DNA of 64,000 nucleotides, taken from NCBI GenBank assembly GCA_964418945.1, contig CAYQNR010000004.1:2156-66155 (forward strand), in the 5' to 3' direction. The position numbers were made by a program, and so were the translations under genes. This DNA comes from an uncultured Desulfobacteraceae bacterium (lineage in GTDB: Bacteria > Desulfobacterota > DSM-4660 > Desulfatiglandales > HGW-15). The notes beneath the pieces were generated by a model that saw nothing but the letters and a program-made list of their open reading frames with translations, was not told the origin of the DNA and did no database searches. Below, in pieces: positions 3,096 through 21,125 of the stretch (positions are counted from its first letter, which is position 1; every line of letters starts with the position of its first letter).

Positions 3096-3668
3096 ATGAT
3101 ACGCACTTTACTATCCATTTGTCTCATTTCAGCCCTGTCGTTGCTCATGGCCTGTAACACAGAACCCACGGCGACAGTTGAAGATACCGCGGCGACAATT
3201 GAAGACACGGCGCCGACAATCCAGGGGGTTTGGACGATCGAAGAAATGGAGGTCGGCATCGGTGAGAATAAAAGAACCACCGTGCCCCAGGCGTTTATGC
3301 TTTTTGTAATGGAGAAGCACTACAGCGCAATCCGCGATTTTTCTCAGGAACCGCGCCCGGGCTGGGGAGCCGGGTCTCCGGAAGGAGAATCTGCCCCTTC
3401 CGTCGCCGGTTTCATGGCTGATGCTGGAACCTATGAATATGACGGATCCACATTTGTGGTCCATCATCAAGTTGCCATGATTCCAAACATGATGCAGGGA
3501 GGATCATCAATGACCTTCGGGTGTCAAATGGAAGGGAACGACACTCTTATACTGGCCCCGCAATACGACAAAATGGTCATACCGGGAATGGAGATGGCGC
3601 CTTCACCAGAGGGGAAGATGTCCTATGGAGACATGGCGGTTCGCTACAAATTCATGCGCTTGGAGTAG
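3096..3668 (+). CDS. Lipoprotein of unknown function
   Basis: Lipobox LLMAC near the N-terminus. AAGGAGG lies upstream of the start. Confidence 0.7.
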   Translation: MIRTLLSICLISALSLLMACNTEPTATVEDTAATIEDTAPTIQGVWTIEEMEVGIGENKRTTVPQAFMLFVMEKHYSAIRDFSQEPRPGWGAGSPEGESAPSVAGFMADAGTYEYDGSTFVVHHQVAMIPNMMQGGSSMTFGCQMEGNDTLILAPQYDKMVIPGMEMAPSPEGKMSYGDMAVRYKFMRLE

Positions 3669-3745: not shown

Positions 3746-5392
3746 TCACTCTCTCGGAACAACAGGAGCCCATTCCACTTTCGCGGCACCGAGGAGTGTT
3801 CCGGTTGCATATGCCAGGTCTATAAGTGCTATCTGATACTCCGCAAGGGCCAGGATTTCCAGTCTCTGTGCGTCTGCAAAGTCTGTCTGAGCATTCAGGA
3901 CATCCGTGGATGTAACAAGGCCCAGTTCAAACTGTCTTTTTTCCGCCCTATACTGCTCGTGCTTAAGGATGGTTGTCTGCCTGCTGGCCAGAACACGCTG
4001 CCAGTTTGCCTCGAGTTTGTCAATCTGGTTTAGCACTTCATACTTTATTTCAGACTTTTTACTCTCCCTGCTGGCAAGTCTCTGGGCACGTTCATACACT
4101 GCCTTTCGAAGCCTGCTTTTTGCCTCCCTGTTGCCAATGGGTATGGATACCTGAAGACCGAACCGGTGATCATTAAAATCATTATCGGACAGGAGGTCAT
4201 ATGAGTCGGTTCTTTCCGGACCCAGACCATTTATATTATATCTGTACTCCAGTGTTACCAGGGGAAGAGTCTGGTTCTTAAGGAAGTCAATGTTACTGCT
4301 GTCCTGGGCTATCTGCAGTTCCAGCTCCAGCATCTCCATCCGGTTTTCAAGGGCCTTTTCCACCATCCTGTTCCTGTTAATTTCATATCTGACAGGGTCC
4401 GGCGGAGATGACGCGATTAAGACCGTTTTTGTTTCCATGCCCAGCCCTTTCTTGTTGAGCATGCGTTTCAAGTCCCTTTCAGTGTCCCGAACATCGTTTT
4501 CAGCCTTTATAATTGCTTCAAGCTTGTCTGCTACACTCGCCTCTGTCCGGATCATCTCAATTTTGGGTTTCTCTCCCACCTCTACAAAACGTGAAGTCTC
4601 CTCATATAAGGCCTTTGAAAGGTCATACTGTTTCCTGCGGACCTCCAGAAGTTTTCGCGTACCGTAAAGCCTCCAGTAGGCACGGTCCACATTGGCGATT
4701 ATGCGGATTGCCTCAAGCTTGGTCCTGGCATCTGTTATACTGCTGTTGTATTGTGCCACCCGAATGCTGTGAGTATTCACCCGATTGCCGCTGTTGCGAA
4801 GCAGGGGCTGACTTATGGACGCAGAAAAGTCTGATTCATAGGAAGGATTAAATACTGAAAAAAGAGAATCCGTTTTCATCCGCCGGTCTGCAATGTCAAA
4901 GGAGAGTGTTCCCCCTGTTCTGAGTGGAATGCTTACACCTAAGTCAACGGAAGTGCTGTCCACGCTGGATCCCGCTATATCGAGCGTTGAAGCGGTGGGT
5001 GTGTCAGTCTTTGCATAGTTCACATTACCCGTAAAGGTAGCATCAAACTTTGCCTCCTCCTGACTGATCCCCTCCTTGGCAATGGAGGGATTGATAAGCT
5101 GCACCCGAAGATCCAGATTGTTTTCAAGGGCAAGTGCACGGCATTCTTCAAGGGAAAGCTCGATCTGGGATGCTTCCGGTTCAATCACATCCACTGTATA
5201 CGGTTTATCCTCTGCTGCTTCTTCTAAGTCAATGACATCAATCTGTCTTACCTCTTCCTGAGGAACAAAGAATTCCGGAGAAGGTTCATACCAATCTTTC
5301 ACGTGTGAACATCCCCCCATAAAACATAATCCATATATCATTGAAATTAGAAACGGTGAAACAAGCTTTTTAAATGAAAACCCTTTTTCCAT
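3746..5392 (-). CDS. TolC/OprM-family outer-membrane efflux lipoprotein
   Basis: Two-repeat OEP-type sequence. It is the last gene of the efflux operon. The start is moved to ATG 5392 (GAGGAGG 8 nt upstream; lipobox FMGGC). Confidence 0.85.
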   Translation of the reverse strand: MEKGFSFKKLVSPFLISMIYGLCFMGGCSHVKDWYEPSPEFFVPQEEVRQIDVIDLEEAAEDKPYTVDVIEPEASQIELSLEECRALALENNLDLRVQLINPSIAKEGISQEEAKFDATFTGNVNYAKTDTPTASTLDIAGSSVDSTSVDLGVSIPLRTGGTLSFDIADRRMKTDSLFSVFNPSYESDFSASISQPLLRNSGNRVNTHSIRVAQYNSSITDARTKLEAIRIIANVDRAYWRLYGTRKLLEVRRKQYDLSKALYEETSRFVEVGEKPKIEMIRTEASVADKLEAIIKAENDVRDTERDLKRMLNKKGLGMETKTVLIASSPPDPVRYEINRNRMVEKALENRMEMLELELQIAQDSSNIDFLKNQTLPLVTLEYRYNINGLGPERTDSYDLLSDNDFNDHRFGLQVSIPIGNREAKSRLRKAVYERAQRLASRESKKSEIKYEVLNQIDKLEANWQRVLASRQTTILKHEQYRAEKRQFELGLVTSTDVLNAQTDFADAQRLEILALAEYQIALIDLAYATGTLLGAAKVEWAPVVPRE

Positions 5393-5405
5393 TTGAAATG
5401 CCTCC

Positions 5406-6134
5406 TCAATCCCCAAGCATCTTCTCCCGTCTTTCCACACGGGAAAAGGTGAGAAGAGTAATTGCTGAAATAACTATAATAAACAGGATACGGTTTTGAA
5501 TCGTATAGGATGAAACGTCTGTCATATTCGAATCCATTGCCAGTGGATTAAAAAAGGGAGACAAACGCATCTTACTGCCAAAACCGATTATCATATTGAT
5601 AGTCAAAAGAAGTGCTGTTGCCATGGCACCGGATATCTCACTCCTGAAAAACGCGGCAAAGGCCATGCCAACGACCATGTAGAAGACTGCTGCCTGAAAG
5701 GCGCCGTAAAATGAAACAAATGGGAATGATGTGAACAGGATAAGAGTAACTATGGCCAGCAGCACTTCACTGAACAGCAGCAGACAAAAGCATGCGGCCA
5801 TCTTCGCAAGCCAGATCCTGTGGCTGCCACCAGGCACGGTATAGGCAACTTCCAGGGTCCTTCGATCCACCTCACTGGCTATTATCCGAATACCAAGACC
5901 AATGGCATAAATCACCAGAGGCAGTCCAATAAGCGACTGGACGTCTATTGCTTCAATTTCAGACTGCCGCCAGCCCACGAGAAGGAGAAACACTTGAAAG
6001 GCCGGCCAAAGCAGAGGGAGCAGCACTGTGATATAAAAACGGCGTCCTGCTATCAACTGGATGGACAGATGAGTAAGTCTTACATAATCCTTAATTCGTC
6101 CTCTAAGTCTGTTTTTCAATGTTTCATCACTCAC
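5406..6134 (-). CDS. ABC-2-type membrane permease
   Basis: Six-TM-like profile directly after the ATPase-containing gene. GTG 6134 overlaps the upstream stop (6127-6129). The 290-aa form from 6278 would overlap the upstream gene by ~150 nt. Confidence 0.65.
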   Translation of the reverse strand: MSDETLKNRLRGRIKDYVRLTHLSIQLIAGRRFYITVLLPLLWPAFQVFLLLVGWRQSEIEAIDVQSLIGLPLVIYAIGLGIRIIASEVDRRTLEVAYTVPGGSHRIWLAKMAACFCLLLFSEVLLAIVTLILFTSFPFVSFYGAFQAAVFYMVVGMAFAAFFRSEISGAMATALLLTINMIIGFGSKMRLSPFFNPLAMDSNMTDVSSYTIQNRILFIIVISAITLLTFSRVERREKMLGD

Positions 6135-9100
6135 TTTCCATATGACTCGGTCCTGACACCTTTCGCTCCATCCCGTATCCCACAAGCTGCAGGTATCCGT
6201 CCTGCAGGCTGGGAGAGATCCTGCGGGCGTGAGGAAAAGGGGGTTCTGAACATAGGGCCCGCGCACGATAGAAGCCATCTTCTTCGGGAATCTGGTCCAC
6301 GATCATGGCGTCTTTTCTAATGTTCTTCTCCTCTCCAGCCCGGATTCTAAACTCCCATACCATGCCTTCCGCTTCTCTGGCCAGCATGGAAGGCTTGCCG
6401 TCAAAGACCATTTTTCCTGCGGCCAGGACAATCACCCTCTCACAGGCTACGGCCACATCTTCAACAACATGAGTTGAAAACAGAACCACCCGGTTTTCAG
6501 CCAGTTTAACCAGAAGATTCCTGAATCGGATACGCTCCCTCGGATCAAGACCCACTGTGGGTTCATCCACTATTATTATGGGAGGAAGACGTAGAAGGGT
6601 CCGCGCAACTGCCACACGCTGCCTCATCCCGCCCGAATACCCCTTGATCTCCTTATCCGCCTGCTCAGACAGGCCTACCTCCTCGATAAGGGTTTCAACC
6701 CTCCCCTTTTTCACAAGGCTGTCGCCGATATCGTATAGCAGGGCATAATATTCCAGGTATTCTCTTCCTGTCAGGTTTCCTGGCAGACCGAAGTCCTGCG
6801 GCAGGTATCCAATCCACCTTGCCAGGTGTCTCCTTATCTTTTTAATGGATATGCCACCAATATCTATAGCGCCTGTTGTAGGCACCAGTATTCCCGCCAG
6901 GGTCCTGAGAAGTGTTGTTTTACCTGCTCCATTTGGACCGAGTATGCCTATCATCCCCTTCTCTGCGCGGAAATGGACATTCTTGAGTGCCTCCACCTCA
7001 TCCCTGGGAAGATCCAAACTGAACAACCTTCTGCTTACCCTTCGCCAGACAGTTTTTACTCTTTGCAAGAATCCCCTGCCCACACGTTCCGTTATTCTTC
7101 CTGCAACCAGGTCTCTGGCTGTCTTTCTCCCCCCTTGAATATATACTATTAAAGCCCCTATGAGCACCAGGGCCAGAGGTGCAAGACGAGGATTTCCCTC
7201 TGCCATTACCGGTATGAGATAATAATGAATGCCCAATAATATGAACACAACCCACGGGACCAGAAATGCCAGCAAATGTTCTATCCCACCGGGATCAGGC
7301 CTGCCGGAAGGATCACACTTGCCCCTCAATCGTCTCAATTGAATCAGGATCTGGCCGAGTATTACGGCGCCGGTAAAGGAGAACACAAGACGCCACCATG
7401 TGGTGCTTAAGGAAAAGGCGAGATATCCTGCCCCTGAAAGGAGTACTATCCTTGTAATAATCGGTTGAATAGTGTCTACGGGTAAAAATGGCTTGCCTCC
7501 CCTGGCAAGGACCCTTTCCGCGAAGTGTTCTCCTGATCGCCAGGCACGACCCACAGGCCCCGGACGACCATATATCTTATGGAGGAATTTTACCTCTATG
7601 TCCATTTCTGCTTCCGGTTCAGGGATATCCGATCTCCTGAACAGAAGTACTATCACTCCAAGAATAACAGCGGCTACAAGCAATGTCGTTATGATCTGCC
7701 ATGTCATGGAAGAAATGTGATCAAATATAATGAGGGGAGACATAACCGCGGCGGTCATTCCAAACCACAGCACTGTTATCCATGGACCAAGTCTTCCAAA
7801 CAGCCTGTCCAGGCGGTTCAGGAACACAAAACCCATAGGGACCACAAGCAGGATAAGCAGGCTTGAAGTGGCCAGACCTCCCATAACCACTACGGCAAAG
7901 GACGGCCATATTTCATTCTCCCTGCCTGTGGGAATGGCCAGAGGCCATAACCCGGCGATTGTGGTGCATGTTGTCATTAAAACCGGCCTGACCCTTTCCC
8001 TGACCGCTGCTATTGCAGCGGCTCCTGCCGACCATGAACCTGTAAGTACCCTCTGCTGCATACGGTCTACAAGGAGAATGGCCGGGTTTACAGTAAGTCC
8101 GAGAAGAACAACAGCCCCTGCCATGGCCATCATATCCGCAGGCATGCCTGTCAGTACCAGTGCCCACGCTGATCCCAGTATTGTTAGAGGGACAGCAAAC
8201 AGCACAAGCACAGGCATCGTAAGAGATTCGAATGTAACAGCCAGCACGGCAAAGAGCAGGAGCAGCATTGGTATAAAAACACGTTTGAACCAGCTTGTAG
8301 ACTCTTCCTTATCCGGCGGATCAACGATATACCCCGCAGGAAGATGAATGCTCCTTATCATTGACAGAATTTCCTCATCCAGTGCATCCCTTGCCGGTCC
8401 TGTTTTAGGCACACTCCCGCTGAACCTGTAAAATACACTTAACTCCCTCCTGCCGTTGTGATGCTGGATCATGGGGGGAGGAGGCATCTTGTATGCATCA
8501 GACACGAGCCCAAGGGGCAGGACACCTGCGGTTGTCGGCAGCTTGAGTTTTTCCATCTTATAACTTACCCGACTGGAGGCGGTTTCATAGCTTCTGACAG
8601 TAAGGGGGATTTCTCTTCCATCGTCCAGGATCATTCCGGCTCGCATCTCCGTCCCTTCCCTGCTCAGCATACTCAGCATCGGCATTATCTGATCCGAAGT
8701 AAGTCCCAGACCGGTCAATATAAAATGATCAGGAACAACCTGTATTTCATCCTGCCCCGGCTTGGCTGAAAGCCAGACACCATGTCTGCCTATCTCCGGT
8801 ATAGATTCCAGTCTTTCCTTTATGGATTCGGCAAGAGCCTTTAACTGACCTGTATCAGGCCCGGAAAGAACAATTTCAGAAGGCCCCTGGCCGAACAATT
8901 GCGCGTTACCACCACCTTCTCTTGATCCCCCCTCCTCTCCCGATGTATCCTCAGACCGGATTTCTATGCCTTTGAGGGTTTTTGCAGCCTCTCTTACCTT
9001 TGATCTTACCCGATAGGCTGTCAGGTCTTCAGGACGTTCATCCCGGTCGACAAACTTTATATTAAGTGAACTGTTGTCCTCCCGCACAATACTTTCAACA

Positions 9101-10911
9101 TATTTTACACCTTCAAGCTCAAGCGCCGCCTGTTCAAGTGCTGATATATCCCGGCCTATTGCCTCCAGGGAATCTCCGGATGGAACATCAATGGATAGTC
9201 TTATTTCATCAGCCTCACTTGCCTCTTCTGATGTTGAACTCACCAATACCCATGGAACAGCTACGATAACAGTAATTAAAACTGCACCTGTTATAACGGC
9301 AAGCCACCCGGCAGGACGACGAAGGGAAATCTTTAACAGGCCTGAAAACAGTTCCCGCCACTTGTCAGGATATACCAGTCCGGCATAAAGTTCTCTCCTC
9401 TTCCGGACTGCATCGAGTCTTGCCAGCGCAGCAGGAGCTGCAAGCTTTCTGCTTAAAAGAGGTACCATCCCGACAGCTACGAGCAGGGATGATACCAGAG
9501 GCAACAGAATAGCGGCGGCAAGTACCTTAAGAAGCCCTCTGATCATTGCGTCCTCAGTTAAAAATGCGATAGGGAGAAACACAATAGCTGTTGTCACTGT
9601 CGCGGCTATGATCGCCCTGATAGTAATCTTTACACCTTCCCCTGCTGCCGCGTCCGGTTCTACTCCCCTTTCAAGCTTGCGCTGAATCGCTTCATACACA
9701 ACTATGCTGTTATCCACCAGCATGCCGATTCCCACAGCAAGACCGATAAGGGTTACTATATTGAGGGTATAACCACCGGTGTATAACATTGCCATGGCAG
9801 CCAAAAGACTGACAGGCACAGACACTGCGACTACACTTACCGCCCTTGGTCGGCGTATGAACAGAAAAAGCACTACAAGGGCAATGATAAATCCGCTGAA
9901 AGCCAGTTTCTTGAGTCGATCAAGCTGTTCTTCCACTGCTTCAGCGCCGTCAAAGCCTATTACAAAATCAATCCCATAGGGATTAAATTCATCCCGCAAA
10001 TCATCAATTCGGGAGCGGAGATCTCTGCCCAGTTTAACAAGATTGGCCCCTTCTTCCTTGAGCACAACAAGACCCACGGAAGGCTTGCTATTTACCCGAA
10101 ACAGCATGTTTGTTCTTCCGGTTCCTCTTGACACATCCGCGACATGGCGTATCAGTACAGGCTTATCCTTGGCTACCCTTATTTCTTCCAGGGCATGGAT
10201 GCCCTTTGGACGACCATCAAGCATTATTGGTGTTCTTTTTGACTCATCTTCCAGCCCTCCCAGGAATCTGAGACGATGAACCGATCGGGTAAGTGATTCT
10301 GTTACATCCCTGGGTGAAATTCCAAGCTCGGCACATTTGTCAGGATTGATACGGACAGTAACTTCCTCTGGCGCGCCTCCCATTACAAAAACAGTACCAA
10401 CACCTGTAACAGCGGCCACCCTGGATTGTATTCTGTCCTCAACAAGGCTTCTAAGGGCATTGTCGTCTGCCCCGCCCAGCACCTGAATGACCATGACAAA
10501 ACGACTTATAATGGAAAAATCCTGCGCTTCAACACTGATTGTTGTTCCCTTTGGCTGGTTTCTTTTAAGTTCAATTGCCAGATGCTGCATTTCCAGTTGA
10601 CGGACTTTGATGTCTGTTCCCGGCTCAAAGCTGACAGTAAAAGAACCCCCGGAACCCCTGACCTCACCCCATGACTCCTTCATTCCGGGGAGTTCGGACG
10701 ACTTTGCCTCTAGAGGAATCAGAATCTCCCGTTCCACGACTTCAGGTTCGCTATTGAGCCTGTTAAAATTTACGTATAATTTGTCACCTTCCAGGTTCGG
10801 AACAAGCTCAACGGGTATTTTCTGCCACCCCACGATTCCCAGCAAAAGAATGGCGGCAAAGAGCATAGATGTGGCAACAGGACGCTGGACAGGGAGGTTG
10901 TACCACTTCAT
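6127..10911 (-). CDS. RND (AcrB-like) transporter fused to an ABC ATP-binding domain
   Basis: Residues 1 to ~1040 are AcrB/HAE-like. Two extra TM helices follow, then DIEVKFLHKIYGR (NBD strand 1), ~4 TM helices, Walker A GPNGAGKT, signature YSGGMRQR and Walker B IIIVDEPT. It is one uninterrupted ORF whose ATGA overlaps the upstream RND stop. Confidence 0.8.
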   Translation of the reverse strand: MKWYNLPVQRPVATSMLFAAILLLGIVGWQKIPVELVPNLEGDKLYVNFNRLNSEPEVVEREILIPLEAKSSELPGMKESWGEVRGSGGSFTVSFEPGTDIKVRQLEMQHLAIELKRNQPKGTTISVEAQDFSIISRFVMVIQVLGGADDNALRSLVEDRIQSRVAAVTGVGTVFVMGGAPEEVTVRINPDKCAELGISPRDVTESLTRSVHRLRFLGGLEDESKRTPIMLDGRPKGIHALEEIRVAKDKPVLIRHVADVSRGTGRTNMLFRVNSKPSVGLVVLKEEGANLVKLGRDLRSRIDDLRDEFNPYGIDFVIGFDGAEAVEEQLDRLKKLAFSGFIIALVVLFLFIRRPRAVSVVAVSVPVSLLAAMAMLYTGGYTLNIVTLIGLAVGIGMLVDNSIVVYEAIQRKLERGVEPDAAAGEGVKITIRAIIAATVTTAIVFLPIAFLTEDAMIRGLLKVLAAAILLPLVSSLLVAVGMVPLLSRKLAAPAALARLDAVRKRRELYAGLVYPDKWRELFSGLLKISLRRPAGWLAVITGAVLITVIVAVPWVLVSSTSEEASEADEIRLSIDVPSGDSLEAIGRDISALEQAALELEGVKYVESIVREDNSSLNIKFVDRDERPEDLTAYRVRSKVREAAKTLKGIEIRSEDTSGEEGGSREGGGNAQLFGQGPSEIVLSGPDTGQLKALAESIKERLESIPEIGRHGVWLSAKPGQDEIQVVPDHFILTGLGLTSDQIMPMLSMLSREGTEMRAGMILDDGREIPLTVRSYETASSRVSYKMEKLKLPTTAGVLPLGLVSDAYKMPPPPMIQHHNGRRELSVFYRFSGSVPKTGPARDALDEEILSMIRSIHLPAGYIVDPPDKEESTSWFKRVFIPMLLLLFAVLAVTFESLTMPVLVLFAVPLTILGSAWALVLTGMPADMMAMAGAVVLLGLTVNPAILLVDRMQQRVLTGSWSAGAAAIAAVRERVRPVLMTTCTTIAGLWPLAIPTGRENEIWPSFAVVVMGGLATSSLLILLVVPMGFVFLNRLDRLFGRLGPWITVLWFGMTAAVMSPLIIFDHISSMTWQIITTLLVAAVILGVIVLLFRRSDIPEPEAEMDIEVKFLHKIYGRPGPVGRAWRSGEHFAERVLARGGKPFLPVDTIQPIITRIVLLSGAGYLAFSLSTTWWRLVFSFTGAVILGQILIQLRRLRGKCDPSGRPDPGGIEHLLAFLVPWVVFILLGIHYYLIPVMAEGNPRLAPLALVLIGALIVYIQGGRKTARDLVAGRITERVGRGFLQRVKTVWRRVSRRLFSLDLPRDEVEALKNVHFRAEKGMIGILGPNGAGKTTLLRTLAGILVPTTGAIDIGGISIKKIRRHLARWIGYLPQDFGLPGNLTGREYLEYYALLYDIGDSLVKKGRVETLIEEVGLSEQADKEIKGYSGGMRQRVAVARTLLRLPPIIIVDEPTVGLDPRERIRFRNLLVKLAENRVVLFSTHVVEDVAVACERVIVLAAGKMVFDGKPSMLAREAEGMVWEFRIRAGEEKNIRKDAMIVDQIPEEDGFYRARALCSEPPFPHARRISPSLQDGYLQLVGYGMERKVSGPSHMESE

Positions 10912-13900
10912 GATTCTGCCCGATTAATACGCAAATGGTCCAAAAGGAGATACAGGCAAGGAATGACAAGAAGAGAAAACAGTGTTGATGTGATGACCCC
11001 TCCGATAATAGTCAGGGCGAGGGGAGCCCTTAACTGCGCTGCCTCACCTACGCCTATCGCGAGGGGCAGAAGGGCCAGCACTGTTGTTGCGGTAGTCATA
11101 AGGATAGGACGAAGCCTTATGGCCGCAGCCCTGGCCAGCGCTTTTTTCCGTTCCAGGCCTTGTGCCATAAGCTGACGTGCGGTCTGGACCATGAGGATGG
11201 CGTCGTTCACGGCAATACCGGACAAAACAATAAGACCCAGAAACTGCATAACTCCAATGGGACGACCGCCCGGAACAAGTACTGCTGCTACACCCACAAG
11301 GGCAAAGGGTATGGAAGCAAGGACAGTGACAGGGTGGACTAGAGACTCAAACGTGCCTGCCAGAACCATGAACACGAGGAGTATAGCTATTATACCTGCC
11401 CATTCCAGTTCACTAAAGGCCTTCTGCCGTTCCTCCTCTTCTCCGGCGAGTTTGATACTCAGCCCCGGACTCAGGTTAATATTTTTTATGACCTTTTCAG
11501 TAACTGCCCTGGCAACCGGGTACTCAACACCTGATGCAACTCTCGCGGTAATCCTGGCTACCCTTCGCTGATCCCTTCGAAATATCTCAAGCGCCCCCTC
11601 TACCGGTACAAAGTCAGCGACATCTCCCACTGTAAGTCGCTCTCCACCGGCAGTAGTAAAGGGGATGGATTTCAGGTCGGGAACATATTTTTTATCCATC
11701 AGAAGAACTACATCCCGTTCCTCATCACCGGTAGACAGTTTTGTGACAGCACGGCCATCAAGGGCAGCTTCAAGTACCCTGGCAAGACTGTCCAGATCAA
11801 TACCAAGACCGTCACAGAGTGTTCGGTTCAGGATGACATGCACTTCAGGCGCGCCACCTTCAAAGGAAGAGCGCACATTCCAGAGCTCAGGCAGTGTCCT
11901 TAATCGTTCAAGAACCTTTTCAGCGCTTTTTCTGAGGTCTATAACTGACTGCCCGGAGATCTCAACCTGGACAGGAGGGCCTGTAGTACCAATGGCCCGT
12001 GAAAGAACGGACGTGCCCAGTTCCCAGGAAACTTCAACATTCGGCAGGGAAGATACTGCTGATGAAGCGGCAGAAACCACCTGGCTCGCTGTTTTACCCT
12101 TTGCTGACAGGTTCACAAGGATTCTTGCCGTATTTTCACCTGTCCTTTCTTCACGTATAAAGTGGTCATCCTCCGGCAGCCTTCCCACCTCAGACAATAT
12201 TGTACGAAGGTCATCTCCTGCCGCTTCCCTGATTATCTCTTCAACAACGGCGGACATATTTTTCGTTGATTCAACACGCTGACCTGGCGGACCCACAATC
12301 CTGAGGGTAAACTGCCTGGGATCAGCAGGGGCAAGGAGTTCGGAGCCCAGGCCTAGCAGGCTGTTGATTGATATTGCAACCAGCAAAAGGCTTATGAATG
12401 TTACGAGAATGGGATGTTTTAACAGACTCAACACAATAGCTTCTATTCTTGCCTTTCCCGGATCAATCTCCCTGGTTTTTCGTCCGGGAAGAAACCATGC
12501 AGCGAGAGCCGGAATCAAGAAAATAGCCACCGCAAGAGAAGCGACAAGAGAGACTACTACAGTAAAGGATATGCCCGATACAAGCCTGGCTGCCAGTCCC
12601 TGAATAAAAAGAACAGGTAAAAACACAACACATGTGGTAAGTGTGCTTGCCACAATCGCCCCTGCGACCAATGCAGCACCTTTTGCAGCCCCCTCTCCCG
12701 GTGAATCGCCCTCTAACCTTCTGCGAAATATACTTTCTATTACAACAATGGCATTATCAACCAGCATCCCGGCACCAAGAGCCATTCCCCCGAGAGTCAT
12801 CAGGTTAAGGCTGTAGCCGGCAAAATGCATGGCAAACAGTGTGGCCATAAGGGATACGGGGACTGCCGAGACAACCACGATTGTTGATCCCAGAGAACGC
12901 AGGAAAAAGGTCAGTACAATGACAGCGAGAATAATACCTATAACAGCGGCGCCTTCAACATCATTAATCGCATCCTCAACCAGAGCCGCCTCATCGCTGA
13001 CTATTCTGAATTCAATATTTTTGAGATCAGTGTTCAGATTTTCAATGGATTCCCTTACGCTTCGGGAAACCTTTACAGTATTGGCTCCTGCCTCCTTATA
13101 AATGGAAAGACTGACTCCTTCCTGACCGTCTACGAGGACCAGATCACTTATCTCCTTCTCAGCGAGAACAACCCGGCCAAGGTCTCCGACCCTCACAGGA
13201 ACCTGCTTGTTTTCCGAATCCCGGTCATACTTGACCAGTACCTGCGTTATATCCTTGACATCCCTGAATCTGGATAAACCTCTTACAAGGTAAACTCTGT
13301 CTCCCTCCTCCAGGGTTCCTGCGTTAATATCCAGGTTTGATGCTTTAATGCGCTGTTCGAGCACTGCCATGGTTACGCCGTGCGCTTCCATCAAATATCT
13401 GTCCAGGAGGATCCTGACTTCCTCTTCACGACCTCCTGTAACACGTACTTCTGCCACCCCTTCAAGCTGTTCAAGGGCAGGAGCAAACTGGCGTTTTGCT
13501 ATGCGGCGCAGTTCAGTAAGGTTGGGAATTCCATCCGGGGCGACAAGTCCCAAAGAAAGGACAGGCAACTGGCGTGGGTCCTGACGCCGGACAAGAACTT
13601 CATCAACATCAGGATCTGCGGCAATGGGATTTACCGCCTTCTGTACATCCACAAGGGCAAGGTCCATATCCGAGTGCCAGTCGAATGTTACCCTGACAAT
13701 AAGGTTTCCGGATCTGGCCACCTGGTTGATTGCCCTGATTCCCCTGACTGTAAACAGGCGTTGCTCAACCTGCTCACCGTAAAGGCGTTCCATTTCAGTC
13801 GGGGGACGGTCACCGGAACGTATCGCGACCAGTACTGTAGGGCTCTGAATGTCAGGAAGGAGATCCAGGGGCAGCTCTTTCCAGGATATCCATCCAAGCA

Positions 13901-13970
13901 TTACTATCGCCGCAGCAACTACGGTTACTGCCACGGGTCGTTTTGTCGCGTAGCGTGCTAGAATATACAT
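10908..13970 (-). CDS. RND efflux transporter permease (AcrB family)
   Basis: 1020 aa with a canonical AcrB-like N-terminus and 12-TM organisation. Confidence 0.9.
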   Translation of the reverse strand: MYILARYATKRPVAVTVVAAAIVMLGWISWKELPLDLLPDIQSPTVLVAIRSGDRPPTEMERLYGEQVEQRLFTVRGIRAINQVARSGNLIVRVTFDWHSDMDLALVDVQKAVNPIAADPDVDEVLVRRQDPRQLPVLSLGLVAPDGIPNLTELRRIAKRQFAPALEQLEGVAEVRVTGGREEEVRILLDRYLMEAHGVTMAVLEQRIKASNLDINAGTLEEGDRVYLVRGLSRFRDVKDITQVLVKYDRDSENKQVPVRVGDLGRVVLAEKEISDLVLVDGQEGVSLSIYKEAGANTVKVSRSVRESIENLNTDLKNIEFRIVSDEAALVEDAINDVEGAAVIGIILAVIVLTFFLRSLGSTIVVVSAVPVSLMATLFAMHFAGYSLNLMTLGGMALGAGMLVDNAIVVIESIFRRRLEGDSPGEGAAKGAALVAGAIVASTLTTCVVFLPVLFIQGLAARLVSGISFTVVVSLVASLAVAIFLIPALAAWFLPGRKTREIDPGKARIEAIVLSLLKHPILVTFISLLLVAISINSLLGLGSELLAPADPRQFTLRIVGPPGQRVESTKNMSAVVEEIIREAAGDDLRTILSEVGRLPEDDHFIREERTGENTARILVNLSAKGKTASQVVSAASSAVSSLPNVEVSWELGTSVLSRAIGTTGPPVQVEISGQSVIDLRKSAEKVLERLRTLPELWNVRSSFEGGAPEVHVILNRTLCDGLGIDLDSLARVLEAALDGRAVTKLSTGDEERDVVLLMDKKYVPDLKSIPFTTAGGERLTVGDVADFVPVEGALEIFRRDQRRVARITARVASGVEYPVARAVTEKVIKNINLSPGLSIKLAGEEEERQKAFSELEWAGIIAILLVFMVLAGTFESLVHPVTVLASIPFALVGVAAVLVPGGRPIGVMQFLGLIVLSGIAVNDAILMVQTARQLMAQGLERKKALARAAAIRLRPILMTTATTVLALLPLAIGVGEAAQLRAPLALTIIGGVITSTLFSLLVIPCLYLLLDHLRINRAES

Positions 13971-13974
13971 GGGA

Positions 13975-15075
13975 TCAGGTAGTCCCTGTTACACGAACCC
14001 GGGTCTGGTCAGTAAGTGTTTCAAGCCCCCGGGTGACAACCCGTTCACCGACTGACAGACCTTCCCGGATTTCCACAATAGAATCATCACCAAGTCCCAG
14101 TACCACTTCTTTCATAGCAACTCTCTGGCCTTTAAGGACAAAAACCACCCACTTGCCACCCCGGTCTGTTACTGACTCCCGGGGCACATATGGGACACCT
14201 TTTCTCTGTTCCTTGATTATAATCACCTCAACAAACATCCCGGGCCTGAGTTTTTCCTGACTATTATCCACCTCTACTTCGGCCCTTAGTGCCCGGGTTA
14301 CAGGATCAATCACAGGATCAAGGCGGACTACCTTGCCCGGAAATATCTCATTTTCCCAGGCATAATGCAGAATTCTTGCCTGAAGTCCTTCCTTTACCTT
14401 TGCCACATCCTGACCCACCAGATCCACATCCGCTATAAGAACGCTGGTAGGGGCGATTCTGGCTACTTCTAAGCCGGGATTGACAAACTGACCCACAGCC
14501 AGGGGCTGGTTCTGGTTGTCCCTGTCCCTTGCCAGCCTGAGGATGACACCGTCTATGGGAGTAGCCAGCAGGTTGCGTTTTTCTGAATTCAGGCTTCGTT
14601 CATACTCCAGCCTTGCATCTTCAAGACCGGACTGCTTGGTGAGTAATTCCGATTTACTTTTAAATCCCTCTTCGTACAGTTTTTTTGCTGCTTCATATTC
14701 ATCTTTTGCTGTCAGAAATTTCTGATAATTTGCCTTTGTTCTTGCGGCCAGGCGTACATCCTCTCCCGTGATCCTGGCAATAACATCACCGGCCTTTACC
14801 CTGTCTCCTTCCTGATAGCGTCGTCCACTCTCATTTGTGAGAAATTCCAGGATACCCCCGGTCTCCACTTCAAGACGTGCCATTTTTTTTGCGCGCAGTG
14901 TTCCGGTTGCAGTAATCCTGTCCTCAACATCGGTAATTCCTACATCCGTGACAGTTACAGGGACCAGAAAATCAATTTCATCAACAGGATTTTCACCTGT
15001 ACAGCCTGAAAGGCAGACCAATACAGATGAAAGAATCAAAATAAGCAACCCGAAAAAGACATGTCTTTTATTCAT
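13975..15075 (-). CDS. Periplasmic adaptor (MFP/HlyD family) lipoprotein
   Basis: Lipobox LSGC, with barrel-sandwich, coiled-coil and beta-barrel sequence pattern. It lies directly upstream of the RND genes. Confidence 0.85.
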   Translation of the reverse strand: MNKRHVFFGLLILILSSVLVCLSGCTGENPVDEIDFLVPVTVTDVGITDVEDRITATGTLRAKKMARLEVETGGILEFLTNESGRRYQEGDRVKAGDVIARITGEDVRLAARTKANYQKFLTAKDEYEAAKKLYEEGFKSKSELLTKQSGLEDARLEYERSLNSEKRNLLATPIDGVILRLARDRDNQNQPLAVGQFVNPGLEVARIAPTSVLIADVDLVGQDVAKVKEGLQARILHYAWENEIFPGKVVRLDPVIDPVTRALRAEVEVDNSQEKLRPGMFVEVIIIKEQRKGVPYVPRESVTDRGGKWVVFVLKGQRVAMKEVVLGLGDDSIVEIREGLSVGERVVTRGLETLTDQTRVRVTGTT

Positions 15076-15089
15076 TCGCTCTCCTTCTG

Positions 15090-18000
15090 TTAATCGCCCT
15101 TTGAGGGTGTCCAGCGTATTGCATCCGCGACAACAAGCTGTCCCTTTGTTCTATCAGAAAGTTCAACAGTCACTTTCCCTTCGGGAAGGTTCAGTTTTTC
15201 TGCCAGGTTCCATCCTTGAATTCCCGCCTCTGAATCAAACTCTATTTTATGCTGATCTCCATTACTGTCACTTACTGTAATATACCATGTACCATACCGT
15301 CTATTCATAAAACCGGTTTTCACAGGCAGATGCAGTTCAAGATCCCATGCGCCATCGTTTGGCAGGGAGGTCGAAAATAAGGCCCTCTTACTGCCTTTAC
15401 CCGGTCTTATTATCGCGAAAGTATGGCGATAGGTTCCCCAGGCTGTTGTTTCTGCTATGCGAGACCATTCACCGGGAACAGGTAACGCCAAAATGTTTGA
15501 AGCTATGTAGGGCAGCCCTTGATCTGTTTCCTCATCACTGTTATTACGTGCTTTTAAGCGCAACCCCTTTTTTTCTTCCTCTTCTGTGATTTCAAAACCT
15601 TTATCCAGATCATCAACAACAATTGAATTATCAACCGGAAGAGTCCACGGGATTTCCTCAATCCCTTTTATGGGATCCTTGTTAACAATCTTATCATGAT
15701 CAAAAAAATTGACGTTTATTAGGAAAATCATCCTGTTAAGCGACAGATACGGTTCCAGAAAATAGCTGTCTGGAAGCCTGGATAGAATCGTGCCGTATTG
15801 AAGCGAGTGCTTTCCTGCAAGCCTGATGGACTCACTTGTTGCAAGTTCAAAATTATTCGATTCTCCCGGATATAGATATACAAAACGAAAAACTCCTGGT
15901 ACGGGCTCATCATTTCTTACGGTAAACAACAGCTGATACTGCGGACTTCCATTCTCATCATCAGGAATTCGATAACCTTTTGCCTCGGAAACAACAAAGC
16001 CCGGCAGTTCGGCGCTACCAATCCAGTCACCAAACAACTCGTTAAAGTCATATCCCAGATCTTTTCCGACCTTTATCATATCATCAACAGAAAAACATTG
16101 GCCTTGGTGATTATTGCGAATAATTGAAAGGAGTGTGGCTGTTTTTTCCCGGCCAAGTACATCCAGTATAGCCTGGGATATGGCATAGCCCTTTAATGTA
16201 AGGACATCCACCGTATCTGCAGGGTCCTTCCAGGGATCCATGTCTTTCAGGGAAACCTCGAGGGCCTTTTCCCATACTGCAGGTCGTGATGTCATTGCCC
16301 TGATAGTAGCATCGGAAAAAGATACACCTAAAGAGCTGGTCTGGATGTAGTTCAATAATACCGAGGTAATGATAGAACTAATTTTGCTTCCGGCTGAGTA
16401 GATATGCGCGGAAAAATAACCCTTTGTGTCCGCGATCAGAAGCCCGGAAAGTGTTTCCATTACAAAATTGAGGGCAAGGCTTTCGGGCCCCACAGCAGAG
16501 GTCTGGTACAGGAAAAAATTTCGTGGTGCCCCTGTTAAGATATTCCCCCCGGAGAAATCATTCTTAAAAAAGGTCTGAAGCCTTTCCCATTTTGCCTGGG
16601 CTATGCCTCCTTCTCTGTCCTTATACCTTTTAGGATTTCTGAAAGCCGAATCAAAACGCGCTGTTGGCAGGGATAACTCCCTCAGCAGTAATAGGCCCGG
16701 AGGAAACTGGACCGTATCAAGCCGCCATCCGCCTCCATATGCCCGTAAACAGGTCGGTACCTCTACCACTGTAAAACCGTCGTAGGGATACCCCAATCCC
16801 ATCTCCTTCGCCTCTTTTAATCTATCACCTGCCCATTCGCGTATTTTATCACCGGTCTCTGCAAGTACCTCAATGTTCTTCATATGTTTTTTAGAGATTA
16901 ACACTTCCATTAAAACATTATCCACTTCAAAGGAGCGGCTTTCAAACCGTGATGCGATCAGTGCAACCTCCGGTACCTGAGATGGAGGTGAAAAACGGAA
17001 CACATTAAATCCATTTCTTTCTTCCACCTTTTGTCGTCTGCCAGGTCCTGCAACAAGCCATGTTTCCGGAAGCTCAACCAAAAGGTCCACATTAAAAAAA
17101 TCCGTAGCCCGTTCTCGCGGGTCATTACGTCCCTTTTCAGGCCCGGACGCGGGCAGCCATCGAGCAGCAGGCATTAATGCAACAAAACCTGAATTGAAGA
17201 TAATATTTTCAGTTCCGAGCAGGGCAATATTGTTACTATTCAGAACACTCATCTCCTGAATATTCATCGCGCTCTTGAGATACGCAAAGTTTTTATCGGG
17301 CAGACCTTCAACATGCAGGAGTACAACTGTTTCTTCACCGGGGGAAAGAATTTCAGGCAGTGAGATCTCGAGCAATCCGTTATTGTGGATGAAATCTATC
17401 GGGTTACCTGTAATATCAAGGACCTTTGTTACCTTTTGGCCCGGGTTGAGGGTAAAGAGGGCCTTTTTTAACGAGTTATCTTCAGGCGCGCAGAACCTGA
17501 TATCGAGATCGAGATCCAGTTTTTCCCCGGGAATGATCTTTACTTTTCCGGAGACAGTTTTAAGATCAGGCACAGGCTCCTGGCTATATTTGCCATGTGC
17601 TTCATACCACAATTCCTGGTTTCTTATAGCTTTTACATCATTAGAATACACAAAACCTAAAAGGCCGGCTGCTATAATAACAATTGCCGTTCCCACGATA
17701 GCAAGTTTTGCGCGAGAACCGTCATCAAGCCGTGGATGAACGGCAGCGCTGACACCCAGTATACCAAGGGAGGCAATGAGTATGGCTATTCGATGCAGCA
17801 GAGCGTCAGCGTCGCTAATGAGGGGAACTAGTTCCGAGGGAAAATTCATCTGGAACATCCCGTAAATATCAAATATTTGGGCTTTATAGAAGGGGAGCTT
17901 TGATATTGCCCAGACATCAAGTCCCATAAGTATAAGAAGAATAACAGCCGAGACCAACCTGTTGCGTACAAGTAAAGTGATCATGAATACAACTGATAGC

Positions 18001-18512
18001 ACAAATGCCAGACATGGAAGGCTCATAAAAAAAACAAAGGCCAGAAGTGAGTACAGTTCAACAGGTTCACCGATCGGGGAACCTACGCCCTTAAGAAGCA
18101 GTCCTAAAAGCTCAAGGAAAACCACCAGTATCAGGATAGGCACCCAGGCAGGGATAAGGATGCCCAGGAAACGGCCTGCCACAAGCTCCAGGTTTGTATA
18201 GGGACGGGAATCAAGAACTTCCATAATCCGTTCTCTCCTGTCCCTTGCCCTGACATCAAATGCCAGGAACACCACCCCCACAGAATAGATCAGCAGGTAG
18301 TACATTCCTATAAAACTAACCAGAAACTTTGGGCAGATAAGCCCGGCGGTCGCGGAATTTGTTGAAAAGATGCCGTGAAGAATTGAGTAATATAAAAACG
18401 CAATAAGTACAATCAGGGAAGAAAAGGAAAGGAATACCCAGTAACGCACAAGGCGTCTTGTGACACGGGTTTCAGCCTGGGCAATAGACCAAACCGGTTT
18501 CATATCAAGCAT
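15090..18512 (-). CDS. ABC-2-type permease fused to a ~800-aa extracytoplasmic domain
   Basis: The N-terminal ~300 aa are multi-TM. The rest is a large soluble region ending ...LVVADAIRWTPSKGD. The start overlaps the ATPase stop. Confidence 0.75.
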   Translation of the reverse strand: MLDMKPVWSIAQAETRVTRRLVRYWVFLSFSSLIVLIAFLYYSILHGIFSTNSATAGLICPKFLVSFIGMYYLLIYSVGVVFLAFDVRARDRRERIMEVLDSRPYTNLELVAGRFLGILIPAWVPILILVVFLELLGLLLKGVGSPIGEPVELYSLLAFVFFMSLPCLAFVLSVVFMITLLVRNRLVSAVILLILMGLDVWAISKLPFYKAQIFDIYGMFQMNFPSELVPLISDADALLHRIAILIASLGILGVSAAVHPRLDDGSRAKLAIVGTAIVIIAAGLLGFVYSNDVKAIRNQELWYEAHGKYSQEPVPDLKTVSGKVKIIPGEKLDLDLDIRFCAPEDNSLKKALFTLNPGQKVTKVLDITGNPIDFIHNNGLLEISLPEILSPGEETVVLLHVEGLPDKNFAYLKSAMNIQEMSVLNSNNIALLGTENIIFNSGFVALMPAARWLPASGPEKGRNDPRERATDFFNVDLLVELPETWLVAGPGRRQKVEERNGFNVFRFSPPSQVPEVALIASRFESRSFEVDNVLMEVLISKKHMKNIEVLAETGDKIREWAGDRLKEAKEMGLGYPYDGFTVVEVPTCLRAYGGGWRLDTVQFPPGLLLLRELSLPTARFDSAFRNPKRYKDREGGIAQAKWERLQTFFKNDFSGGNILTGAPRNFFLYQTSAVGPESLALNFVMETLSGLLIADTKGYFSAHIYSAGSKISSIITSVLLNYIQTSSLGVSFSDATIRAMTSRPAVWEKALEVSLKDMDPWKDPADTVDVLTLKGYAISQAILDVLGREKTATLLSIIRNNHQGQCFSVDDMIKVGKDLGYDFNELFGDWIGSAELPGFVVSEAKGYRIPDDENGSPQYQLLFTVRNDEPVPGVFRFVYLYPGESNNFELATSESIRLAGKHSLQYGTILSRLPDSYFLEPYLSLNRMIFLINVNFFDHDKIVNKDPIKGIEEIPWTLPVDNSIVVDDLDKGFEITEEEEKKGLRLKARNNSDEETDQGLPYIASNILALPVPGEWSRIAETTAWGTYRHTFAIIRPGKGSKRALFSTSLPNDGAWDLELHLPVKTGFMNRRYGTWYITVSDSNGDQHKIEFDSEAGIQGWNLAEKLNLPEGKVTVELSDRTKGQLVVADAIRWTPSKGD

Positions 18513-19444
18513 TATGCCACCTCCTTTTCGGAAGTCTCTAAGCTCTTTCCCCGTGCTGCCATAAAGGCCAGGTATGCCTCCTCCAGGGTAGGGTTTTCCA
18601 GTAATCTTGCCCCTGGAGGAAGATTCCGGTCACTTGATACTGCCCGGATGGTAACTTCATTTTCCCTGTCCTCTCTTGATACTATTTCCAGATTAGCGGT
18701 AACCTGTGCCTCATCCTGATGGGGGATGGTTATTTCAAATACCGAACCTACGGCCCTTTTAATAAGTTCGGATGGACTGCCCCTGAATTCCACCTTTCCG
18801 TGATCGATCAAGGCCATATCAGAACATCCTGAACCCAGGTCCGCAACTATGTGGGTGGAAAGGAGGATAACCCGGTCCTGACCAAGCCTGGTCATTAACT
18901 GTCTGAAATTCAGACGCTCCTCAGGATCCAACCCAACTGTAGGTTCATCCACAACAAGGATCCTGGGTTCATGGACAAGGGCCTGTGCTACACCCATTCT
19001 TCTGACCATACCGCCTGAAAGTTTCTTGACTTTCCGGTCAGCCACATCGCTAAGGCCGACAGACTCAATGATTTCATCGACCCGCTTATGACGAAGAGAT
19101 TTTTCCTCAAGGCCGGAAAGGGCTGCAAGGGTATCCAGCACCTCTGCCACACGGTGCAGACGCCATGCGCTGAATTCCTGGGGCAGGTACCCTATCAGAC
19201 TTCGCACTTCCCTGCGATTATCCACCACATCATAACCACCCACAGAAACCTTCCCTTCTGTGGGGGGCAGCAGGGTACAGATGATACGCATAAGGGTGCT
19301 TTTACCGGCTCCATTAGGACCAAGCATCCCGAAAAACCCTGTACCTATCTTAAGGTCAATGCCATCAAGTGCGACAGTATCCTTTTTATAAATATGCCGG
19401 ACTCCTTCGATGGCGATATGCATCCCATTTTCAGCCTGTTCCAT
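18512..19444 (-). CDS. ABC transporter ATP-binding protein
   Basis: Walker A GPNGAGKST, signature LSGGMVRR, Walker B ILVVDEPT. Confidence 0.92.
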   Translation of the reverse strand: MEQAENGMHIAIEGVRHIYKKDTVALDGIDLKIGTGFFGMLGPNGAGKSTLMRIICTLLPPTEGKVSVGGYDVVDNRREVRSLIGYLPQEFSAWRLHRVAEVLDTLAALSGLEEKSLRHKRVDEIIESVGLSDVADRKVKKLSGGMVRRMGVAQALVHEPRILVVDEPTVGLDPEERLNFRQLMTRLGQDRVILLSTHIVADLGSGCSDMALIDHGKVEFRGSPSELIKRAVGSVFEITIPHQDEAQVTANLEIVSREDRENEVTIRAVSSDRNLPPGARLLENPTLEEAYLAFMAARGKSLETSEKEVA

Positions 19445-19546: not shown

Positions 19547-20461
19547 TTAGAGTTTTCCGGGCGCAAAATCTCCGCTGCCGAAAGGCCGAACATCTGTAAG
19601 TATAAATGGTCTGTCAATCTTTGTAATGATTAGCGGACAGTGTGCAAGGCCTTTGGGTATCACCACTGCAGTCGGTTCGGTTATTACATGTCTTTCCATT
19701 TCCTTTCCTAAGTATAACTCAGCCTCTGCCCCCAGATAGCCTAGATTATTGGTATCTATCCCCATAAAAAAAAGGATCTCGGGTTTGGGATGGGTATGCG
19801 GCTTATCCGGTATAGGACCAAATCTGTACGGAGCTTTTTTTAAGCTCTCGCACATAATAAGAAATTCAAATTCATTCGGGTCTTTATTATAAATGAAGGC
19901 AAGTGAACCGCCTGAGTCGTCCCGGTTCTTAGGCCCATAAATCCAGGCACCTTTGCGAATGAACGCGGTATTCATAATGTGTTTCCTGTATTTGCCCGTC
20001 CATCCCATTATCGGCGCAGACTCAAAAACCTTCTTATCAAATGGCACAGACTTCTCTTTATATTCAGAAGCATATGATATTTCCATGTATATAAAACGGT
20101 TATCCATTCTTTGAATAGTAGCCGGGAAATGCGATAACCCTTTGGGAACCCAGACCGATGAAGAACTAGTAATCATATATCTTTCTCCTTCTTCGCCCAT
20201 ACAAAGCTCGACCTCAGCACCCAACTCTCCCATCTCATTTGTATCTACTCCCATAAAAAGCATTATCTGATTAAAGTCATGGGAGTGCGGGCCATAGGGT
20301 TCCTTCCCCATCTTACCAGCTGCAACAAAGGTTCCAAACTGAATATGAAAATCCAATCCAAAAGATTTCCCGTTTAGTTGAGTCACCTGCCTGTTGAGCC
20401 CGGATGTATCACCTTTAAATTTGAGTTTTTTTACATATCGACCGTATTTTGTTTTAGCCAT
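19547..20461 (-). CDS. Bicupin protein, uncharacterised family (paralogue 1 of 4)
   Basis: Two cupin modules: PHSHDFNQIMLFMGVD...VPKGLSHFP and PHTHPKPEILFFMGID...IPKGLAHCP. Confidence 0.75.
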   Translation of the reverse strand: MAKTKYGRYVKKLKFKGDTSGLNRQVTQLNGKSFGLDFHIQFGTFVAAGKMGKEPYGPHSHDFNQIMLFMGVDTNEMGELGAEVELCMGEEGERYMITSSSSVWVPKGLSHFPATIQRMDNRFIYMEISYASEYKEKSVPFDKKVFESAPIMGWTGKYRKHIMNTAFIRKGAWIYGPKNRDDSGGSLAFIYNKDPNEFEFLIMCESLKKAPYRFGPIPDKPHTHPKPEILFFMGIDTNNLGYLGAEAELYLGKEMERHVITEPTAVVIPKGLAHCPLIITKIDRPFILTDVRPFGSGDFAPGKL

Positions 20462-20949: not shown

Positions 20950-21042
20950 GTTTTTGTTATAGATCAGGGTGAATTATGATGTGGAATATCCTTTCGAAGA
21001 TCCTGATCTTTTGACCCACAATGTTACACGTGTCATTTTGTC

Positions 21043-21100
21043 TTGACACACCAGGGCTATCTTCCTATGCTAATTCTCTGAAAAAGCCAGTTCTTATCAA
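21043..21100 (+). promoter_or_regulatory. Promoter plus leader box (copy P1)
   Basis: TTGACA, 17-nt spacer, TATGCT, 9 nt, then AAAAAGCCAGTTCTTATCAA. Confidence 0.65.
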
Positions 21101-21125
21101 CTATCACATAATAGGAGGGACCAAA

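Follow-up and report, generated by a model that had tools for sequence, protein, structure and literature searches.

How should an operon be read that sets the parts of an ATP-binding cassette (ABC) exporter and of a resistance-nodulation-division (RND) pump side by side? Tripartite efflux systems are divided into energy classes, with RND pumps in one and ABC exporters in another, and cooperation between an inner-membrane transporter and an RND pump is usually assumed to run via the periplasm, without physical contact. The operon in question lies in a stretch of 64,000 nucleotides (nt) from an uncultured Desulfobacteraceae bacterium (contig CAYQNR010000004.1), referred to below as the window. 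On the minus strand, from 19444 to 3746, seven consecutive open reading frames (ORFs) encode, in this order, a soluble ABC ATPase (ATPase1), a giant permease of 1140 residues (perm1140), a periplasmic adaptor (membrane fusion protein, MFP), an RND permease (RND1), a second RND permease continued into an ABC ATPase (RND2::ABC), a small ABC-2 permease (perm2) and an outer-membrane factor (OMF). All components belong to known families, and the cassette is a variant of tripartite efflux systems. Here, we show by homology searches, synteny analysis and structure prediction that the order of the first six genes is conserved and that the RND-ABC fusion appears obligatory. A functional link between the ABC and RND parts is strongly favoured by the recurring gene order and the conserved fusion, and a physical link is probable. 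That the cassette encodes one physically coupled, envelope-spanning ABC-RND exporter is the reading we favour, at about even chances.

The window ORFs, assigned with Pfam and NCBIfam, bear out the seven-gene operon and the domain content described in a first-pass annotation of this DNA. Two starts had to be corrected, that of perm2 to a GTG at 6134 (242 residues) from an ATG at 6278, and that of the OMF to an ATG at 5392 (548 residues) with the ribosome-binding site GAGGAGG; genes called on identical metagenome contigs have the same two starts. With these starts the gaps between successive genes are -1, +14, +4, -4, -8 and +13 nt, in agreement with the gaps of 1-15 nt or overlaps claimed before, and junctions of -8 to +14 nt are compatible with co-translation. 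In a scan for transcription signals, promoter-like sites occurred at the level of shuffled sequence and are uninformative; terminator-like sites were modestly above that level, with no convincing one at the operon ends.

The fusion gene is the centre of the argument. Its ORF of 1594 residues is continuous, with the RND part at residues 5-1031 and the ABC_tran domain at 1309-1452, and more than 120 full-length homologue clusters among the matches listed share 53-93% identity with it. Their labels include Bacteroides sp. SM23_62, Thermodesulfobacteriota/Deltaproteobacteria, Acidobacteria and Thermoanaerobaculales (here and below, the taxa of loci and homologues are those of the record labels), and database names for the protein are generic only, such as 'AcrB/ABC-type multidrug transport system ATPase subunit'. 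The linker of ~270 residues that leads from the RND part to the ATPase core is itself conserved and carries the motifs FGRLGPW and YGRPGPVGR. A query with this linker and insertion retrieved only 42 proteins from 1.84 billion cluster representatives, and all full-length carriers (1528-1601 residues) have the linker at about residues 1025-1300. No unfused ancestor or variant was clearly found with the linker query among these representatives, where short matches resemble contig-end fragments. The conserved full-length homologues, the conserved linker and its constant position make the fusion a stable, family-defining feature, which at the level of sequence appears to be obligatory. A sequencing or assembly artefact as the source of the fusion was ruled out by the more than 120 independent full-length clusters and the conserved linker.

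How is the ATPase attached to the RND permease? We modelled fusion residues 1020-1594 with AlphaFold2 (AF2), from an alignment of 79 sequences collected in the homologue search (predicted local distance difference test, pLDDT, 85.3; predicted TM-score, pTM, 0.73). The model places two transmembrane (TM) helices, TM13 and TM14 (helices 4-43 and 50-72 of the fragment), ahead of a 10-residue beta-strand, two short helices, four TM helices, a return helix and a complete ATPase with its C-terminal domain. The helices of the insertion, at fragment positions 100-117, 125-148, 152-176, 190-217, 226-250 and 264-278, are predicted with pLDDT 81-95, and the insertion region is conserved across the 79 sequences. 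The isolated strand, DIEVKFLHKIYGRPGP, provides the fused ATPase with its first strand and A-loop; the A-loop tyrosine, Y1114, is invariant in a 12-sequence alignment as well as in the 79-sequence one. Once the strand is joined to residue ~1300, the match to the GldA hidden Markov model (HMM), which begins at model position 16, extends to position 1, and the spliced ATPase aligns end to end with ATPase1 (residues 5-296 of ATPase1, 37% identity over ~299 residues, E 5e-64). In this alignment MHIAIEGVRHIYKK stands opposite MDIEVKFLHKIYGR, and the first-strand segment pairs with ATPase1 residues 8-21. The AF2 model, the spliced alignment, the HMM coverage and Y1114 thus argue that the fused ATPase is a paralogue of ATPase1 whose first two strands are separated by a membrane insertion of ~180 residues with four helices. 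Among solved structures, the fused ATPase comes closest to TM_1403, NosF and LptB (Foldseek, E 1e-20 to 1e-16). In both ATPases, ATPase1 and the nucleotide-binding domain NBD2 of the fusion, the Walker A, Q-loop, signature, Walker B-Glu and H-loop motifs are all canonical. The C-terminus of AcrB-type RND proteins is cytoplasmic, and the even number of helices after RND TM12 (2 + 4) is consistent with a cytoplasmic ATPase domain.

Recurrence of the block in other genomes had been set beforehand as the test on which the proposal could fail. We scanned one genome per species with linker-specific patterns and obtained 51 loci, with labels that include Desulfatiglandales/Desulfobacterales, Acidobacteriota/Thermoanaerobaculia/Holophagae, metagenome-assembled genomes (MAGs) of Gammaproteobacteria, a Cryosericum MAG and Acidobacteria bacterium Mor1, a record without a MAG label. 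The giant permease, MFP, RND1, RND::ABC and perm2 occur in the same order in essentially all loci with enough flank (tblastn with the window proteins), and ATPase1 precedes the giant permease in two distant longer contexts, a 257-kb contig (56% identity) and a 6.48-Mb Desulfatiglandales contig. The order from ATPase1 to perm2 hence recurs at identities down to 35-60% under several phylum labels, and these six genes are the conserved core, in loci labelled Desulfobacterota, Acidobacteriota and Gammaproteobacteria. That the parts form a complex is argued from the covalent link, the membrane-stapled ATPase and the synteny across phyla.

Two matches of the scan contain runs of N and were excluded from the evidence. 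One (L011, Fidelibacterota) matches only fusion residues 913-1363; in the other (L039, Moorena bouillonii), partial RND1 and fusion matches start right after an N run, and this copy could be mis-scaffolded foreign DNA rather than cyanobacterial.

The giant permease of the core combines several domains. In its AF2 model (pLDDT 88.5, pTM 0.85), residues 1-307 form an N-terminal interfacial helix and seven long helices, an ABC-2-like arrangement with one extra TM helix. They are followed by an M1-aminopeptidase fold (~316-835), a beta-sandwich (~839-980) and a Golvesin_C domain (1014-1134) that resembles carbohydrate-binding modules (CBMs); Golvesin_C has been placed in a CBM6/35/36-like class in a paper on bacterial lectins (PMC9166713). 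About three quarters of the protein are thus a multi-domain region, predicted to be periplasmic. The M1 region matches IRAP, ERAP1 and aminopeptidase N (Foldseek, E 1e-18, ~640 columns, 11-12% identity), and neither HEXXH nor GxMEN occurs in any of 65 giant-permease homologues, which marks the domain as a pseudo-peptidase. Neither this domain nor the split of the fused ATPase figures in the first-pass annotation. Searches of Pfam and NCBIfam gave no peptidase match for the protein. The possibility that the giant permease is an active peptidase was rejected, as it has neither zinc-binding nor exopeptidase motifs. From the pseudo-peptidase and CBM-like domains, the substrate of the system is probably peptide-like or glycoconjugate-like.

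Several observations weigh against a single integrated exporter. First, the OMF stands outside the conserved core: it follows perm2 in nearly all Desulfobacterota-type loci (in one, L017, an OMF lies ~7 kb off) and adjoins the block in none of the Acidobacteriota or Gammaproteobacteria loci, and on the 257-kb contig the genes after perm2 are unrelated. The seven-gene unit claimed by the first-pass annotation therefore shrinks to a syntenic six-gene core; of the single envelope-spanning machine suggested there, synteny and the conserved fusion favour the ABC-RND link, and the outer-membrane part is not a fixed member. Second, RND::ABC and perm2 stand alone among unrelated genes in two loci (L019, 6917-12423; L038, 6824-12480), where the opposite-strand genes upstream include patatin-POTRA-Omp85 and VapB. 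Third, the 6.48-Mb contig carries three giant-permease paralogues (P0147, P0227 and P0232), one of them shown within a full cassette, and P0232 (L058, 10001-13402; 46% identity) stands as an orphan, away from any ABC ATPase, MFP or RND gene. The stand-alone units and the orphan indicate that the modules can be separated and may not work as a single complex in every case. Fourth, the assignment of the giant permease as an ABC-2 permease is incomplete. The N-terminal helices are ABC-2-like, and several homologues match PF12679/PF12698; the window protein itself stays below threshold (PF12698 23.3 bits against a cut-off of 31.6), most of it is the multi-domain region, and its transmembrane domain (TMD) shows no significant similarity to perm2. 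Finally, the M1-like and CBM-like domains would be periplasmic given seven helices and a cytoplasmic N-terminus, a placement of the M1-like domain that comes from counting helices on a predicted model.

Could the operon then simply bring together transporters that work independently, two or three of them (an ABC-2 exporter and an RND tripartite pump), with a common physiological role? The fusion would in that case be a 'Rosetta stone' of co-function, with energy and substrate paths that are not integrated. The stand-alone RND::ABC-perm2 units and the orphan paralogue speak for this explanation, and so does an exchange within close relatives: in L001 (3-2732) and L002 (3-2729) the giant permease is only 53% identical to the window copy, with divergence uniform along the gene, in operons that are otherwise ~90% identical (the other genes 73-96%, or 87-96% excluding the OMF of L002). 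This pattern points to replacement of the whole gene by another allele, or to diversification of the giant permease, and the cassette as a whole seems to be an assembly of three modules, ATPase1 with the giant permease, MFP with RND1, and RND2::ABC with perm2. However, every full-length family member is fused through a highly conserved linker, the predicted ATPase is interleaved with membrane helices directly after RND TM12, and the six-gene order is kept across differing phylum labels. We consider independence quite improbable.

What energises the RND part? RND1 and RND2 both match the 12-TM, two-porter-domain model PF00873 (ACR_tran) above its gathering score and over its full length, from about position 2 (position 3 in RND2) to position 1020. 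Among solved structures, MdtB is the best relative of RND1 (313.8 bits); RND2 is more divergent. The proton relay of AcrB consists of D407/D408 in TM4 and K940 in TM10, and MdtB, when aligned, has the same residues as AcrB, DD in TM4 and KN in TM10. In an alignment to solved RND chains, RND1 carries VDNA (DN) in TM4 and VNDA (ND) in TM10, motifs that are kept in 25 and 29 of 30 loci, respectively. RND2 carries VDNS (DN) and VNPA (NP), which are kept across the loci; D400, N401, N942 and P943 do not vary in the 12-sequence alignment. RND2 therefore has no charged residue at the positions of AcrB K940/N941 and a single acidic residue at the relay positions, and the AcrB-type Asp-Asp/Lys relay by which HAE-1 multidrug RND pumps are recognised is absent from both paralogues. 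In its periplasmic part, RND2 also contains a Gly/Glu-rich low-complexity stretch, SGEEGGSREGGGNAQLFGQG (fusion residues ~655-680, window ~8870-8950, minus strand), which is poorly conserved in the family consensus.

The two RND genes had been likened to a heteromeric pump of the MdtBC type. They are indeed tandem paralogues that always co-occur, but RND1 scores 347.7 against an equivalog cut-off of 1584 (NF007798) and 366.4 against 1774 (NF007905), and RND2, with 203.1 and 229.1, falls short of the same two cut-offs. Together with the missing DD/K relay, this makes 'MdtBC type' an analogy of layout rather than membership. The single acidic relay residue of RND2 is compatible with an altered energy coupling and does not prove it. 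A more radical proposal would fit the loss of the TM10 relay charge: RND2::ABC could be the first RND with a cycle powered or gated by ATP hydrolysis, instead of or besides the proton-motive force, working as a (RND2::ABC)2-RND1 heterotrimer in which two membrane-stapled ATPases dimerise under the RND TMD with a perm2 dimer. We regard this proposal as unlikely.

For the favoured single exporter, we envisage an ATP-driven module of the type V/ABC-2 class wired to a two-paralogue RND pump, with RND2 joined through the TM13-TM14 hairpin. RND1 and RND2 would assemble as a heterotrimer in the manner of MdtB2C, and such a heterotrimer would reconcile a three-fold RND assembly with a two-fold ABC dimer. 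Two arrangements are conceivable. Two RND2::ABC protomers could supply an ATPase dimer that works with a perm2 dimer; alternatively, the ATPase of a single RND2::ABC could partner ATPase1 over a pair made of the giant permease and perm2. The loci with stand-alone RND::ABC and perm2 lead us to lean to the first. The ABC part would use the energy of ATP either to take the substrate out of the cytoplasm or inner membrane, by extraction or flipping, or to act mechanically on the M1-like domain in the periplasm. The RND porter domains would then receive the substrate, and the single MFP with an OMF, encoded in cis or elsewhere, would expel it.

Does the ABC part handle substrate at all? It may be that it moves none, and that ATP drives the M1-like/CBM-like domain and RND2 so as to load, gate or assemble the RND/MFP/OMF conduit, as in NosDFY, MacB, LolCDE and FtsEX. 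The likeness of the ATPases to NosF and TM_1403 class domains suits such mechanotransmission, as do the NosY-like label given to the giant permease by the Joint Genome Institute (JGI), its large non-catalytic periplasmic domain and the lack of a charged TM10 residue in RND2. In addition, the predicted hairpin and four-TM insertion would tie the ATPase to the membrane at three points, which would suit the transmission of force. Two complete permease/ATPase sets, however, exceed the apparent needs of a simple gating device. Sequence alone does not separate mechanotransmission from the relay of substrate described above, and we rate it as possible, though on the unlikely side.

By analogy with RND proteins of the HpnN/MmpL type and with Lpt, Lol and DevBCA, the cassette might instead serve envelope biogenesis and deliver a lipid, lipoprotein, glycolipid or exopolymer to the outer membrane or cell surface. 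The CBM-like C-terminal domain of the giant permease, its three paralogues in one 6.48-Mb genome and the non-canonical proton-relay positions point in this direction, and no drug-resistance regulator lies beside the operon in the loci examined. Yet RND1 and RND2 score best on multidrug (HAE-1-like) and heavy-metal RND models rather than on HpnN or MmpL, the MFP and OMF are of the efflux type, and in the same loci no biosynthetic genes are conserved nearby. A biogenesis machine thus seems very improbable.

The RND-ABC fusion, an ATP-coupled RND and the fusion of an ABC permease with an M1-like domain are undescribed in the full-text literature that we searched, which covered few subscription journals and no curated transporter classifications, so that an earlier mention is possible. 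An ATP-powered RND would, if true, be categorically new. An obligatory covalent union of RND and ABC would, if true, provide a natural and tractable coupled two-energy export machine, with a second ATPase, two permeases and a pseudo-peptidase domain. It opens the questions of whether ATP drives or gates the RND cycle, how a trimeric and a dimeric motor assemble, and what is gained by threading an ATPase through the membrane. Most members of the family come from uncultured lineages of sediment and soil with the labels Desulfobacterota and Acidobacteriota; Acidobacteria bacterium Mor1, if in culture, may allow experiments.

ATPase1 is preceded by the ribosome-binding site AGGAGG, and its best NCBIfam matches, TIGR01188 and TIGR03522, are both below the equivalog cut-offs. 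The MFP belongs to the TIGR01730 subfamily (170.9 bits, cut-off 94.9) and is probably a lipoprotein, judging by a signal peptide that ends in LSGC. perm2 scores above the PF12679 gathering threshold (33.5-35.2 bits against 27.2), and in essentially all loci that extend far enough, the gene after the fusion is a perm2 homologue. The OMF has PF02321 OEP repeats and a lipoprotein-type signal peptide ending in FMGGC, with scores below the TIGR01844 and TIGR01845 cut-offs.

Upstream of the operon, at a distance of 102 nt, lies an ORF of 304 residues (19547-20461, minus strand), which the first-pass annotation had called a bicupin. An internal repeat is clear (halves 45% identical over 82 residues, E 5e-26), but the cupin signal is weak, with a PDB match at E 0.12 and no Pfam match even at E <= 5. 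A 37-residue ORF that overlaps its start is called just upstream on identical contigs. The 304-residue ORF accompanies the operon only in close relatives, and distant loci have LytB or SurA on the other strand; as a part of the system, the cupin-like gene was ruled out by this lack of synteny. Further along, the genes between 21021 and 32349 are not conserved beside the operon in distant genomes. The features of the operon and its surroundings are collected in Table 1.

Table 1. Positions of the operon genes, of segments of the fusion protein and of neighbouring genes in the window.
Feature	Position	Strand	Assignment
ATPase1, 310 residues	18512..19444	-	soluble ABC ATPase, DrrA/GldA-like (ABC-2 class); first operon gene; PF00005 105.9 bits
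perm1140 (giant permease), 1140 residues	15090..18512	-	weak PF12698/PF12679; PF25275 35.1 bits; Golvesin_C at C-terminus
MFP periplasmic adaptor, 366 residues	13975..15075	-	TIGR01730 RND_mfp; PF16576, PF13437
RND1, 1020 residues	10908..13970	-	full-length RND permease; PF00873 692.9 bits
RND2, RND part of the 1594-residue fusion (residues 1-1031)	7819..10911	-	PF00873 481.8 bits
TM13-TM14 hairpin after RND TM12 (fusion residues ~1023-1091)	7639..7845	-	AF2 helices, hydropathy peaks 1045-1091; conserved motif FGRLGPW
First beta-strand and A-loop of the fused ATPase (residues ~1103-1123, DIEVKFLHKIYGRPGPVGRAW)	7543..7605	-	AF2 strand 86-95 of fragment
Membrane insertion within the fused ATPase (residues ~1119-1297)	7021..7557	-	AF2: two short helices, four TM, return helix
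NBD2, rest of the fused ATPase (residues ~1306-1594), including C-terminal domain	6130..6996	-	PF00005 103.5 bits
perm2, small ABC-2 permease, 242 residues	5406..6134	-	PF12679; GTG start overlaps end of fusion gene by 8 nt
OMF, TolC/NodT-like, 548 residues	3746..5392	-	PF02321 161.7 bits in 3 stretches
SnoaL_4 protein	21021-21719		
Oxidored_FMN + Pyr_redox_2 reductase	22065-23996	+	paralogue of 24891-26990
Oxidored_FMN + Pyr_redox_2 reductase	24891-26990	-	paralogue of 22065-23996
DUF169	28064-28984		
URO-D-like protein	29023-30255		
Aldehyde:ferredoxin oxidoreductase	30286-32349		
MFS transporter gene, beyond OMF, opposite strand	727-2052	+	
Two ORFs beyond OMF	2162-3025, 3096-3668	+	no Pfam match

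How does the cassette compare with known systems? MdtABC of E. coli likewise has two tandem RND paralogues after a single MFP gene, and MdtB2C is a precedent for a 2:1 RND heterotrimer with divided roles. Here, however, DN/ND and DN/NP stand at the relay positions in place of DD/K, one of the RND paralogues is extended by six TM helices and an ABC ATPase, and a further ATPase and two ABC-2 permeases are encoded in the same operon. MacAB-TolC and DevBCA-type systems share with the cassette an ATP-driven inner-membrane component that works with an MFP and a TolC-like channel. In contrast to the DrrA/GldA/NosF-like ATPases found here, one of which continues the C-terminus of an RND protein, MacB belongs to type VII and has its ATPase at the N-terminus, four TM helices and a periplasmic domain of its own, and it has no RND partner.

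On the ABC side, the comparison is with YbhGFSR and RbbA-YhhJ-YhiI of E. coli, which combine ATPases of the ABC-2 class and 6-TM permeases with an MFP gene; both ATPases of the cassette have RbbA among their NCBIfam matches, but the E. coli systems have neither an RND nor an M1-like periplasmic domain, and their ATPases contain no TM insertion. NosDFY, a mechanotransducer in the maturation of N2O reductase, resembles the cassette in that an ABC-2 permease works with a large periplasmic domain and in the closeness of NosF to the fused ATPase. It differs in that NosD, NosL and NosZ are missing here, the M1-fold domain is fused to the permease, and RND, MFP and OMF genes are linked. The M1 zinc aminopeptidases, recognised by an HEXXH-(X18)-E zinc site and the exopeptidase motif GxMEN, share the multi-domain fold of giant-permease residues ~316-835, whereas the domain described here is tethered to a membrane permease and lacks HEXXH and GxMEN. 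Finally, the regulatory insertion of CFTR NBD1 also lies between the first two beta-strands of an ABC ATPase; it consists of ~30 disordered soluble residues, whereas the insertion in the fused ATPase is ~180 residues long and is predicted to cross the membrane with four TM helices.

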